From a virus (taxonomy: Duplodnaviria > Heunggongvirae > Uroviricota > Caudoviricetes), in IMG/VR virus record IMGVR_UViG_2585427964_000003: a stretch of 36,745 bases of DNA. One strand, given 5' to 3'. Both the position numbers and the translations under genes were made by a program. The notes under the pieces were generated by a model. It did not search any database. It saw only the letters and a program-made list of their open reading frames with translations, and had not been told where the DNA came from. Shown here one piece after another: positions 14,850 to 36,745 of the stretch. Every line of letters starts with the position of its first letter. Position 1 is the stretch's first letter.

Positions 14850-14855
14850 ACCTCT

Positions 14856-14890
14856 AAACATTGAGCGACCAGCATGGCCGCTCAATGTTT
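14856..14890. terminator. Perfect 12-bp inverted repeat hairpin (AAACATTGAGCG - 11 nt loop - CGCTCAATGTTT) between convergent genes
   Basis: Lies 7 nt after the stop of the 14064..14849 gene and 31 nt after the stop of minus-strand S; A/T runs form the stem ends. Confidence 0.5.
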
Positions 14891-14920
14891 AATTGCGCAT
14901 CAGCCTCTGCCTGGATAAAA

Positions 14921-18465: not shown

Positions 18466-18658
18466 TGCGTATTTTCATGAAAGGAGATCACTCAATAACT
18501 TCCATCGAGATCGGGTAATAACATTTGAACAGATCGCTGAATAACATCGATGGAGATCACTTTTGACTCATTTTGTTATTCAGTGATCTCCATCAATGTT
18601 ATTGGAACTTCACAGGTGTGTTGATCTGTATCTTTTGCCATTCCGGTAAAGGATACCT

Positions 18659-29476: not shown

Positions 29477-29832
29477 CAACATATCCTCTGTTGAATCTTT
29501 ATGATAAAAATTAATTATTTTTATCATAAATGATAGCGTAAACATAGTCTTATGAACGACATCAGCCCTGAAGCTTCAAAACTATCATTTACGTTTGCGA
29601 GGCACCATCTATCACATTGATTTATAATAAGTATCTTTATCTTCACTGCATTGCTCTCAAAAAATCACATAGATGGAAATTCCCCGTTGACACACTCCCA
29701 AGTGATGCAGATACATTTCAAGTGCTTCATACACATGATAACGGCTATCCCCCTAAATTCTGTGCGTTTCTTTTCCCTCCAGCACAAGGTTGAAATATCT
29801 TGCGTGCAGCTTTACTTTGTGAATCTTTGTCA

Positions 29833-34714: not shown

Positions 34715-34947
34715 TTCCATACCCTCCGGCTTTTCAGAAAGGTCAGAGCCTTTTTTAACGGACTCTGTTTTTTGGTGCGGATAATGATTCCCTTGCGTCC
34801 CTTCCCGTGGGTGATGGTGAAGTCAATCGCCCTGGGGCTTTCGTTACGCAGTAACTGAGCAATACAACGAGGCTCGTTCATCCTTTCCACCTTAAGCCGC
34901 ACGGCCATGTCTTGATTTGCTGTAACTAATGCGATTTTTCCAGTCAT
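34711..34947 (-). CDS. P2 orf78-like small basic protein (start uncertain)
   Basis: ORF 34711..35001; the internal start MTGKIALVTANQDMAVRLKVE... would give 78 aa. The stop overlaps the B start. Start not resolved (candidates at 35001, 34968, 34947, 34908). Confidence 0.4.
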   Translation of the reverse strand: MTGKIALVTANQDMAVRLKVERMNEPRCIAQLLRNESPRAIDFTITHGKGRKGIIIRTKKQSPLKKALTFLKSRRVWK

Positions 34948-35263
34948 GCCATTCTGTCGGAGCTTCATCAACCAGTTGGGCTGCGTACTTGTCCCACTCA
35001 CGGCGATTAATCCATAATTCAGCTTTCCCTCTTGGTTTTAATGGGTCTGTCATGTAGAAGGCTGGCAGCTTTCCTGCTTTAGCCATTTCAGCCACCGCGC
35101 GTGGTGTCTTACCGATGTAAAGAGCAAAACCTTCTTTCGACAGCAAATCAGATGGGCGCTCTGAAATCTGAATGCTTTTACGTTTGGCTTCATTTTCGAA
35201 ACTTGCCTCATCGCTAGTTGGACAAGAAATTTCTACATTTGTCGTCACTTTGCTATCCTCCAT
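34892..35263 (-). CDS. cox: Cox-like excisionase / transcriptional regulator with N-terminal extension
   Basis: C-terminal two thirds (FALYIGKTPRAVAEMAKAGKLPAFYMTDPLKPRGKAELWINRREW) fit the pattern recalled from P2 Cox. The 123-aa ORF is about 30-45 aa longer at the N-terminus than P2 Cox (91 aa), so the true start may be downstream or non-ATG. Confidence 0.6.
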   Translation of the reverse strand: MEDSKVTTNVEISCPTSDEASFENEAKRKSIQISERPSDLLSKEGFALYIGKTPRAVAEMAKAGKLPAFYMTDPLKPRGKAELWINRREWDKYAAQLVDEAPTEWHDWKNRISYSKSRHGRAA

Positions 35264-35266
35264 AAG

Positions 35267-35319
35267 ATTTGCGATTCACCAACTGGAGCCATCTAGAGCC
35301 TTTTTGAGTGAATCGCAAA
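35267..35319. promoter_or_regulatory. Perfect 13-bp inverted repeat ATTTGCGATTCAC (27 bp spacer) GTGAATCGCAAAT in the cox-C divergent control region; candidate operator
   Basis: Read directly from the sequence; spans the intergenic region between the divergent cox-like and C genes. Confidence 0.5.
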
Positions 35320-35333
35320 TTGCCAAGTAACAA

Positions 35334-35339
35334 TATAAT
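35334..35339 (+). promoter_or_regulatory. Candidate -10 hexamer TATAAT for the repressor promoter (Pc)
   Basis: Perfect TATAAT 18 nt upstream of the C ATG; no convincing -35 at 17 bp spacing (AATCGC), so weak. Confidence 0.3.
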
Positions 35340-35356
35340 TGGAGATTAGCAAAATT

Positions 35357-35656
35357 ATGTCAAGTAAACAAAGTGAGAAACTAAAGCTCATCCGTGAATC
35401 CGAACGCCTTAAAACTAAGGAACTTGCTGAATTAATTGGAATTAATTACTACACATATCATGGATATGAATCAGGAAAATCAAAAATGCCTATGGAAGCA
35501 GGTATGAAGCTGTTTAAGCATCCACGCTTTCGCAAGTATCGTGACTGGTTCATGTTTGATGAAACAGATCCAGCAGCTGGACAAATAGCCCCGGCTCTCG
35601 CACACATTGGGCAAGACTCAACAACCTTGCACCACTCAGACCAGAAGACTGGCTGA
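35357..35656 (+). CDS. C: Immunity repressor C
   Basis: ATG at 35357 with a GGAG Shine-Dalgarno gives 99 aa (the P2 C length); helix-turn-helix region LKTKELAELIGINYYTYHGYESGKS and C-terminus GQIAPALAH.GQ...QKTG resemble P2 C from memory. The ORF-track start at 35339 is a TTG. Confidence 0.85.
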   Translation: MSSKQSEKLKLIRESERLKTKELAELIGINYYTYHGYESGKSKMPMEAGMKLFKHPRFRKYRDWFMFDETDPAAGQIAPALAHIGQDSTTLHHSDQKTG

Positions 35657-35749: not shown

Positions 35750-36745
35750 ATGTCTATTAAAAAGCTCGATGATGGTCGTTATGAAGTGGACGTCAGACCG
35801 CAGGGTGCAGATGGAAAACGTATCAGGCGGAAATTTAAAACTAAAGGTGAAGCTCAAGCATTCGAACGTCATGTACTGGTTAACTACCACAACAAAGAGT
35901 GGTTGGAGAAACCAGCCGACCGCCGAACTCTTACAGAGTTGTTAGGCAGATGGTGGATATATCACGGAAAATCACATGAGCGTGGAGATATTGAACGGGG
36001 GCGTTTAACGACAATAATCGCCAAATTTGCAGAAATGGGAGTGTCCAGAGCTGACCAGCTAACAAAGAAAACGATAACTGATTATCGCGTTGTAATGATG
36101 AACGATGGTCTAAAACCAGCCAGCGTAAATCGACATCTGGCAATAATGAGTGGGATGTTCACCAAGTTAATTGACGCCGGTGAATACCACTCTCACAACC
36201 CGTTCCGTGAGATTAAACGGTTACGTGAAGCTGTTACGGAAATGGCTTTTTTGTCCAGTGAAGAGATTACGCGGCTGTTATCCATGCTCGATGGTGATGA
36301 ATTAAATGCAACTCTGGTCTGCCTTTCTACTGGTGGACGCTGGAGTGAAGTGTCTAATTTAAAAGCTGAACACATCATTAACCAGATGGTTACGTTTATG
36401 AAAACTAAAAACGGAAAACGCAGGACAATTCCCGTTTCGCAGGACCTGATTAAACGGATCAAGACCAAAAATTCAGGCAGGCTTTTTAATGCCAGTTACT
36501 ACAAAGTGCGTAACGCTCTCAGGGAAGTAAAACCCGATTTACCTGACGGACAAGCAGTACATGTTTTGAGGCATACATTTGCCACACATTTTATAATGAA
36601 TGGAGGTAACATAATCACATTGCAGCGCATCCTGGGTCATTCTAACATTCAGCAAACTATGACCTACGCACACTTTGCACCGGATTTCTTACAAGATGCT
36701 GTGACTCTTAACCCGGTGTCAGGAATGTCCATAATGCGTCCATAA
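35750..36745 (+). CDS. int: Tyrosine integrase
   Basis: 331-aa ORF with GGAGGG Shine-Dalgarno; C-terminal catalytic motifs (R...HVLRHTFATHF...LGHSNIQQTMTYAHF) typical of phage tyrosine recombinases; the stop codon is the last 3 nt of the window. Confidence 0.92.
   Translation: MSIKKLDDGRYEVDVRPQGADGKRIRRKFKTKGEAQAFERHVLVNYHNKEWLEKPADRRTLTELLGRWWIYHGKSHERGDIERGRLTTIIAKFAEMGVSRADQLTKKTITDYRVVMMNDGLKPASVNRHLAIMSGMFTKLIDAGEYHSHNPFREIKRLREAVTEMAFLSSEEITRLLSMLDGDELNATLVCLSTGGRWSEVSNLKAEHIINQMVTFMKTKNGKRRTIPVSQDLIKRIKTKNSGRLFNASYYKVRNALREVKPDLPDGQAVHVLRHTFATHFIMNGGNIITLQRILGHSNIQQTMTYAHFAPDFLQDAVTLNPVSGMSIMRP

Follow-up and report, generated by a model that had tools for sequence, protein, structure and literature searches.

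The 13-nt inverted repeat that lies between cox and the repressor gene C in the 36,745-nt Caudoviricetes sequence analysed here (IMG/VR record IMGVR_UViG_2585427964_000003; hereafter, the window) looks like the form that a dyad filling the overlap between the convergent promoters Pc and Pe has taken in this lineage, an unusually long and perfect one. All P2-type switches that we examined, P2 and WPhi included, carry such a dyad. The repeat exists, its pairing is conserved as a pattern, and it is independent of the specificity of C and Cox. As an explanation we tentatively favour, with somewhat less than even confidence, selection for base pairing in the overlap dyad, which would place a 5' stem-loop on both the Pc and the Pe transcripts. 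On the other hand, comparative sequence evidence points away from an inverted-repeat operator for C, a function that we disfavour for the arms.

By gene content and order, the locus is a P2-type C/Cox/Int switch, with a P2 C-like repressor, a divergently oriented Cox and int past C (Table 1). The deduced C protein aligns without gaps to P2 C (PDB 2XCJ/2L49) over residues 1-99 (E = 1e-25), matches PHROG 147 (E = 4e-40) and yields a Pfam HTH_19 match under the cut-off. It is 50.5% identical to its P2 counterpart (tblastn), 46% to that of WPhi, 46% to that of the L-413C class and 62-80% to those of several uncharacterised classes. Helix 3, which alanine scanning identified as the recognition helix of P2 C (PMC2995052), reads YYTYHGYES here and YGTLSYYES in P2. 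Because both C identity and helix 3 differ, heteroimmunity of the phage to P2, to WPhi and to the L-413C class is very probable; the divergent immunity specificity that the original prediction had derived from repeat orientation is thus upheld by the C sequence and not by the inverted arrangement. For cox, aligned relatives indicate GTG at 35248-35246 as the probable start codon, 7 nt past GGAGGA (35261-35256), and the annotated ATG at 35263 (34892-35263) has no Shine-Dalgarno sequence. The interval originally highlighted, 35264-35356, corresponds to the stretch from this annotated cox ATG to the C ATG, and the repeat itself occupies 35267-35320. The switch is 99.3-99.7% identical in Peduovirus P24E6b and P24A7b, Escherichia phages D8, 11W, 12W and pro483, and Yersinia phage vB_YpM_46. 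Of 5426 complete E. coli genomes, 143 carry the pro483/P24E6b/D8 immunity class, to which this prophage belongs; the prophage of E. coli E24377A (NC_009801) has the switch at 98.3% identity. Our literature search, whose reach did not extend to Karlsson et al. 2006, found no experimental work on this class; that study reportedly defined immunity classes and proposed repeats for them.

Table 1. Features of the predicted C/Cox/Int switch in the window.
Feature	Coordinates	Strand	Remarks
cox, long 'group 2' form, 118 aa	34892..35248	-	Pfam Phage_Cox E = 3e-29; PHROG 1831 E = 4e-66
Predicted Pc, extended -10 TGCTATCCT	35251..35259	+	start predicted at 35265-35267
Predicted Pc/Pe convergent overlap, ~62 nt	35266..35328	.	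long imperfect hairpin on either strand
Left (Pe-distal) arm ATTTGCGATTCAC	35267..35279	.	predicted Pc +1..+13
Two tandem 10-bp repeats, CAACTGGAGC and CATCTAGAGC	35280..35299	+	loop between the arms; probably Cox boxes
Right (Pe-proximal) arm GTGAATCGCAAAT	35308..35320	.	~Pe +9..+21 from the predicted start
Early promoter Pe	35335..35363	-	-35 TTGACA 35363-35358, 17-bp spacer, -10 AATTAT 35340-35335
Immunity repressor C, 99 aa, helix-turn-helix	35357..35656	+	P2 C homology
Integrase	35750..36745	+	Pfam Int_N + Phage_integrase; stop codon coincides with window end

A repeat search in the window confirmed that the arms are complementary at 13/13 positions and dyad-symmetric, as initially described, with a spacer of 28 nt instead of the 27 claimed and a centre-to-centre distance of 41 bp. 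The left arm ends 5 nt ahead of the cox Shine-Dalgarno sequence of the opposite strand. In 300 dinucleotide-preserving shuffles, inverted repeats that pair perfectly over 13 nt or more around a spacer of 3-60 nt averaged 0.03 per window, and 2% of the shuffles held any; the actual window has four such repeats. Folded as single-stranded DNA, the region reached -14.6 kcal/mol (z = -4.0), a value equalled by none of 200 shuffles. The 13-nt repeat is therefore real and not a product of chance. A search of the window for the half-site GCGATTCAC with up to one mismatch returned 10 matches against 10.9 expected, that is, no additional sites.

The P2-type switch that had been proposed for this interval is borne out by matches to the C, Cox and Int genes, and its face-to-face promoters are predicted, Pe from a match to the sigma-70 consensus at 10 of 12 positions and Pc from a conserved motif. 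Transcription from Pe would start near 35328, and its -35 hexamer and the C start codon overlap in precisely the way annotated for P2. Pc was predicted from a TGnTAnnnT signature that occurs once, 99-107 nt upstream of the C ATG on the C-sense strand, in 22 of 22 class representatives of the phage's own subfamily, always flanked by the start codon and the Shine-Dalgarno sequence of cox; it recurs at -135 in the more distant L133 and at -130 in WPhi, there inside the Pc promoter annotated by the depositors (AJ245959, 1875..1911). This conservation and the coincidence with the annotated WPhi Pc are the grounds on which we place the Pc start of the window. Since TGCTATCCT overlaps the cox ribosome-binding region of the opposite strand, conservation of the motif is partly ambiguous and could derive in part from translation signals. 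The TATAAT hexamer noticed earlier is indeed present (35334-35339, + strand) and corresponds to the -10 zone of Pe read on the complementary strand. As a -10 element for Pc it was rejected: the sole -35-like sequence, TTGCCA (35320-35325), is 8 bp off, and a start there would delete the Shine-Dalgarno sequence of C. With starts predicted at ~35266 for Pc and ~35328 for Pe, each transcript would hold both arms of the repeat, and the overlap folds at -24.0 kcal/mol in the Pc sense and at -23.5 kcal/mol in the Pe sense, with comparable values in other classes.

Pairing in this interval extends well beyond the present class. In 16 independent heteroimmune classes, the stretch from Pe +1 to the cox Shine-Dalgarno sequence forms a long-range, often near-continuous hairpin, with a mean z-score of about -2.75 with respect to shuffles (most between -2 and -4.4), although the arm sequences are unrelated among heteroimmune classes. 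The predicted Pc/Pe overlap measures 55-63 nt in every class, and in 15 of 18 classes 0-5 nt separate the predicted Pc start from the beginning of the hairpin, whose distance from the Pe start is mostly 7-10 nt. The signal was clearer when folding allowed bulges than in an ungapped inverted-repeat scan, which in the other classes gave individually weak results (p = 0.04-0.8; Fisher combined ~0.07). With a covariance model of this class, the corresponding site of other classes was retrieved only at E = 0.3-1.6, and an Rfam search assigned the element to no credible family. The overlaps of P2 and WPhi behave likewise (fold z = -2.6 to -5.6). The Pc base implied for P2 by published primer extension (PMC1904263), ~50 nt from the cox ATG, is where the dyad TAGTGC/GCACTA ends; in WPhi, which additionally carries TCAAAAGG/CCTTTTGA, the dyad CCAGTCCCT/AGGGACTGG begins 4 nt past the annotated end of the Pc promoter. 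These overlap dyads, located 0-4 nt from the Pc start, are taken to be the same kind of element as the repeat of the window on the evidence of sequence and position, even though their arms are shorter (6-9 bp), their spacers smaller (10-22 nt) and their sequences unrelated. Dyad symmetry of the overlap would thus be general to these switches; in P2 and WPhi, whose operators are direct repeats located elsewhere, it is not the C operator, and the literature searched assigns it no function in either. The regularity proposed has two parts: an overlap that is palindromic from Pc +1 onward, and an extended -10 of Pc concealed within the ribosome-binding site of cox.

Repressors as a rule read palindromes, and the P2-type C proteins are the textbook exception; a true inverted-repeat operator in this family would bear directly on the reading of asymmetric DNA by a symmetric dimer. 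That P2 C binds direct repeats, as the original prediction stated, is documented for proteins of this type (PMC2995052, PMC1904268). The P2 operator O1/O2 consists of GTTTAGAT twice in direct orientation, 22 bp centre to centre and flanking the Pe -10, and that of WPhi of TATTGGTGAC twice, also direct, 34 bp apart and with O1 in the Pe spacer (PMC1904268). Operators of this type are pairs of half-sites of 8-10 bp in direct orientation, set 22-34 bp apart beside the -10 or -35 of Pe. The window resembles P2 in its 99-aa C, the C start codon under the Pe -35, the opposite-strand Cox, the downstream int and a predicted face-to-face pair of Pe and Pc. It departs from P2 in a C with only 50.5% identity and a different helix 3, and the repeat, unlike the P2 operator, is inverted, 13 nt long, spaced 41 bp centre to centre and wholly past the Pe start. 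A likeness to WPhi resides in the Pc TGnTAnnnT near the cox start and in the distance of the right arm from the Pe -35 (44-56, versus 47-56 for WPhi O2); a direct-repeat scan gave no significant match here to an equivalent of WPhi O1. Lysis-lysogeny switches governed by 186 CI or by lambda CI and Cro do rely on inverted-repeat sites, and the promoters of 186 are face to face too (PMC1904263). Neither 186 CI (~196 aa) nor lambda CI is related to P2-type C, and their half-sites are contiguous within operators of 14-17 bp that lie over promoter cores, unlike the arms of the window, which are 28 nt apart and downstream of both predicted starts.

The arms might nonetheless be auxiliary or autoregulatory C sites, each occupied by one dimer, in a direct-repeat arrangement turned inverted; we regard this as unlikely, yet it fares better than the other alternatives. 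On this account, the right arm, at the distance from the Pe -35 just compared with WPhi O2, would block Pe just past its start as O2 does, and the left arm, over the Pc start, would give negative autoregulation. The orientation of the sites might be free, with a symmetric C dimer sitting on each known half-site (PMC2995052). The arms are also the only significant repeat of the region: around the Pe -10 and -35, a scan whose controls recovered O1/O2 of P2 (p = 0.044) and of WPhi (p = 0.002) found no direct repeat of significance in the subfamily (p = 0.73 and 0.98 in the window). Two candidate pairs were rejected as compatible with chance and overlapped by coding or ribosome-binding constraints: one, TTACTTGACA/TTACTTGGCA, lies around Pe at a separation of 37 bp, and the other joins TTTTGCTAATCTC to the right arm over 34 bp. 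TTTTGCTAATCTC, in the Pe spacer, could still be seen as a weak third copy of the arm (9/13 matches; 10/13 in L045), but it is insignificant alone and ~0.4 such matches are expected by chance. Also against C sites, both arms lie clear of the -35 and the -10 of Pe.

Natural recombinant switches weigh against C as the reader of the arms. L013, which has the switch of the present class, and L052 (of the L052/L101 class) coincide at 57/60 of C residues 1-60 and have an identical helix 3 and 88% identity in the Pe core, along with overlaps only 55% identical and cox genes at 68%. Similarly, L066 and L009 match at 53/60 C residues with helix 3 identical, at 100% of the Pe core, 51% of the overlap and 60% of cox. 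The reciprocal combination is found in L047 and L062, with 93% identity in cox, a different helix 3 (50/60 C residues), 67% in the Pe core and 58% in the overlap. Identities of 51-58% make the overlaps, arms included, essentially unrelated; a hairpin nonetheless forms in each. The mixing of these parts in recombinant pairs evidences that the overlap and its arms are exchanged independently of C and of Cox, and a class-specific reading of the arms by C or by Cox is, as far as these sequences go, hard to square with such exchange. L047 and L062, with near-identical Cox, do differ both in their C helices and in their arms, as C recognition would have it, but in the other two pairs the recognition helix and the Pe core are retained beside unrelated arms. 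The P2 and WPhi dyads, which resemble the repeat and are distinct from the mapped operators, speak against C half-sites as well. Retention of the core together with helix 3 suggests instead that the C operator is probably inside the shared Pe core, so that in this common E. coli prophage class (143/5426 genomes) it would be found there and not in the arms.

We considered how the arms vary under a constant repressor, in a sample of ~45 metagenomic and viral contigs plus five E. coli prophages with the same C helix-turn-helix. The perfect repeat is present in 4 of ~41 other contigs with the same C, the remainder matching at 10-12 of 13 positions, and an identity of at least 99% over 35236-35350 is reached by at most 21 of the 143 E. 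coli prophages. The perfect form is thus a minority allele and no fixed trait of the phage type. The 26 arm nucleotides hold 10 of the 15 variable sites of the 135-bp switch. Seven consecutive positions of the right arm (35309-35315) are polymorphic under an invariant C helix-turn-helix, GTGAATCACAAAT and GCGAATCACAAAT being the commonest alleles, which counts against these arms as C half-sites. This clustering of polymorphism could, conversely, reflect diversifying selection on operators. The left arm is nearly invariant within the immunity class (exceptions, L042/L043/E70 and CUVM53). Its inner TTCAC runs on into a block, TCACCAACTGG, that is common to several heteroimmune classes, a further point against specific reading by C, and the right-hand arms of the classes sharing TCACCAACTGG are complementary to differing registers of it. 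A constrained left arm and a drifting right arm are to be expected if the right arm existed only for pairing. So many variable sites in the arms are surprising for a stem under strong selection, unless 13 bp of pairing can absorb single mismatches.

Joint substitutions in the two arms are in keeping with pairing. Position 7 changes from G to A in both arms of L044 and L045/L046 (GCAATTCAC/GTGAATTGC), and position 6 from C to T in both arms of L042/L043/E70, in each case with an identical C helix-turn-helix; in an independent class, a C-G pair is replaced by A-T between L070 and L130. Changes of both arms with C unaltered fit a pairing constraint better than recognition by a protein. Across the alignable family, 89% of cells are paired and two pairs are doubly changed, a modest signal that 34 of 500 shuffles equalled. 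In L044-L046, 17 of 18 positions of the arm core are kept and the inter-arm spacer has diverged at about one third of its positions. Among single-arm changes, 8 of 9 are transitions, with no strand bias in wobbles (five G.U in Pe-sense RNA versus four in Pc-sense RNA). Fold energies and z-scores are likewise similar for both strands; because transcription is predicted on each of them, the strand comparison has less power as a test. The data fit dyad symmetry at the DNA level as well as they fit an RNA structure.

In the reading that we tentatively favour, Pe would transcribe leftward from ~35328 and Pc rightward from ~35266. The C-int mRNA would carry a 13-14 bp stem from its first nucleotide, and the cox mRNA the same stem from ~+9 to 5 nt before its Shine-Dalgarno sequence, with the probable Cox boxes within the loop. 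The arms would be kept for mutual pairing, most likely as a 5' stem-loop with RNA rather than DNA presumed to be the folded molecule, and not for being read by C. 5'-terminal stem-loops stabilise E. coli mRNAs, the ompA 5' UTR being an example. By analogy, the most probable role of the element would be to protect and shape transcript 5' ends, chiefly that of the weakly expressed C-int message, a stabilising effect presumed from the position of the stem relative to the predicted starts. As in ompA-type stem-loops, a stable stem lies within a few nucleotides of the predicted 5' end; unlike them, the element has a mirror image on the opposing transcript. If confirmed, it would add a third, regulator-independent part to the classic two-repressor switch and give studies of transcriptional interference between face-to-face promoters a concrete element.

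The interval between the arms raises the question of Cox. P2 cox-boxes comprise at least six 9-bp copies of TTAAA(G/C)NC(A/C), spaced 10-11 bp and in either orientation, and P2 Cox protects at least 70 bp, repressing Pc and, at high level, also Pe (PMC3936717). The tandem pattern CAACTGGAGC/CATCTAGAGC occurs nowhere else in the window when no mismatch is allowed, and the position and approximate sequence of its units are conserved across classes sharing the Cox winged-helix core. This conservation and a period matching that of P2 suggest that the central repeats are probably Cox boxes. Their sequence departs from the P2 consensus, and Cox here belongs to the longer 'group 2' type. A possible third in-register unit, GGTGAATCGC, lies on the Pe strand and overlaps the left arm. 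The arms themselves might be part of a Cox-bound or architectural region, with Cox nucleating on the central boxes and spreading or wrapping over the arms and Pc, and the arms acting as inverted, weaker Cox boxes or as bending elements. The extent of P2 Cox protection, the tolerance of box orientation (PMC3936717) and the units between and over the arms are in line with this possibility; in addition, the block TCACCAACTGG adjoining the left arm is conserved together with the Cox core, and the overlap moves with cox in L052 and in L066/L009. We nonetheless judge it quite improbable. This class, pro147/L075 and YpM_117/L071 combine an identical winged-helix core with unrelated arms, and the outer 8 nt of each arm show no resemblance to the central boxes or to the P2 consensus. 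L047 and L062 have different arms and a common Cox, N-terminal tail included, a comparison that also rules out this tail as the arm reader.

Alternatively, the repeat may be a functionless quasi-palindrome, maintained and occasionally perfected by template-switch mutation in otherwise free DNA. Template switching yields coordinated changes in both arms, and correction of quasi-palindromes by this route could generate the joint substitutions described above without selection. The concentration of polymorphism in the arms, which are the most variable part of the switch, the minority status of the perfect form and the lack of strand bias all agree with such an origin. We grant it only a slight chance: the dyad recurs with unrelated sequences in ~16 independent classes plus P2 and WPhi, at the same place relative to Pc, and in L044-L046 the arm core has outlasted the divergence of the spacer.

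A bolder proposal, which we rate as a long shot, casts the palindromic overlap as a design principle of P2-type switches that sharpens the mutual exclusion of lytic and lysogenic states, irrespective of the specificity of C and Cox. The nascent hairpin would be complete just when polymerase reaches the opposing promoter, and a hairpin-stabilised pause ~10-12 nt later would park the enzyme on the -10 and start of the rival, near 35256 if it comes from Pe and near 35331 if it comes from Pc. Otherwise, the fully complementary 5' hairpins might pair loop to loop. An intrinsic terminator was discarded because no T-run follows either arm; the arms are 38% G+C around a 28-nt loop, and a terminator scan made no call.

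Elsewhere in these prophages, a motif similar to the tandem units, ACCAGAGTTAACTAGAGCC, is found directly past the int stop at the prophage-pflA junction, in both E. coli and E. albertii (L007, L139). The phage and its genes are otherwise ordinary.

Variation within the switch is unevenly distributed. Among phages of the window's immunity class, 14 of 15 variable sites fall in the two arms of the inverted repeat between cox and the repressor gene C and near the start site of Pe, the early promoter directed toward cox. The loop between the arms, the Pe core and the Pc motif (Pc being the predicted C-int promoter) are invariant in this class. Such clustering in the arms and at the Pe start could stem from diversifying selection or from locally elevated mutation (a hot spot). 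The same region carries a direct repeat, TGCCAAGTAAC and TGTCAAGTAAAC (35321-35331 and 35358-35369, 37 bp apart), with the Pe -35 under one copy and the Pe start under the other. The window and D8, a phage of its immunity class, differ at three positions, two of which (35330 and 35366) lie inside these copies; the one at 35366 is a Glu-to-Lys change at residue 4 of C.

The Pc motif, an extended -10 of the form TGnTAnnnT, sits across from the cox ribosome-binding site, on the other strand, in all class representatives examined but P2 (loci L007-L133); its position in WPhi is that of the Pc promoter given in the annotation. Double use of this stretch, as cox ribosome-binding region and as extended -10, may account for 'TA.CA', whose conservation in the interval from the cox Shine-Dalgarno to the start codon otherwise lacks an explanation. 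Public records place the cox start at an ATG at 35263 (- strand) that is devoid of a Shine-Dalgarno. A GTG at 35248, on the same strand, follows GGAGGA (35261-35256) by 7 nt and lines up with the start codons of relatives (ATG or TTG); because of this spacing and alignment, Cox is probably 118 rather than 123 aa long. Alignment of Cox proteins further uncovered an N-terminal extension of ~30 aa in the window's group (window cox, 34892-35248), composed of an acidic part followed by a basic patch, which is hypervariable across classes, and an almost invariant winged-helix core.

In two loci of classes other than the window's, compact palindromes, ATGTGTGTAGACACAT (L056) and AGACATTAAATGTCT (L057), occupy the Pe start region just 3' of the Pe -10. 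Their size fits one helix-turn-helix dimer, and they may be the C operators of the respective classes. Besides the repeat in the switch, the window harbors three perfect inverted repeats that are 13-14 nt long and have short spacers.

Coordinates of switch features and of additional inverted repeats in the window
Feature	Position	Strand	Remarks
Candidate cox start region	35246-35263	-	Shine-Dalgarno and alignment with relatives
Extended -10 motif TGnTAnnnT	35251-35259	+	In all class representatives examined except P2
Variable stretches in the switch	35309-35315, 35272-35274, 35326-35332		Phages of the same immunity class
Perfect inverted repeat	14855-14891		Spacer 11 nt
Perfect inverted repeat	18549-18594		Spacer 20 nt
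Perfect inverted repeat	29498-29530		Spacer 5-7 nt; A+T-rich

Relatives integrate directly upstream of pflA. Where prophage and pflA meet, immediately after the stop codon of int, two related loci carry the motif ACCAGAGTTAACTAGAGCC (L139, 1806-1824; L007, 2889-2907), which is similar to CTGGAGCCATCTAGAGCC, the tandem repeats that separate the arms, and may be a Cox site at the attachment site. No tRNA gene occurs in the window. Its last bases (36743-36745) are exactly the integrase stop codon, which suggests that the window was trimmed to a prophage boundary set by prediction. Two related contigs appear defective: in L129, the C gene is frameshifted past residue 27, and in L020, the cox reading frame continues into sequence unrelated to cox, the probable cause being a deletion that fuses it to a downstream gene.
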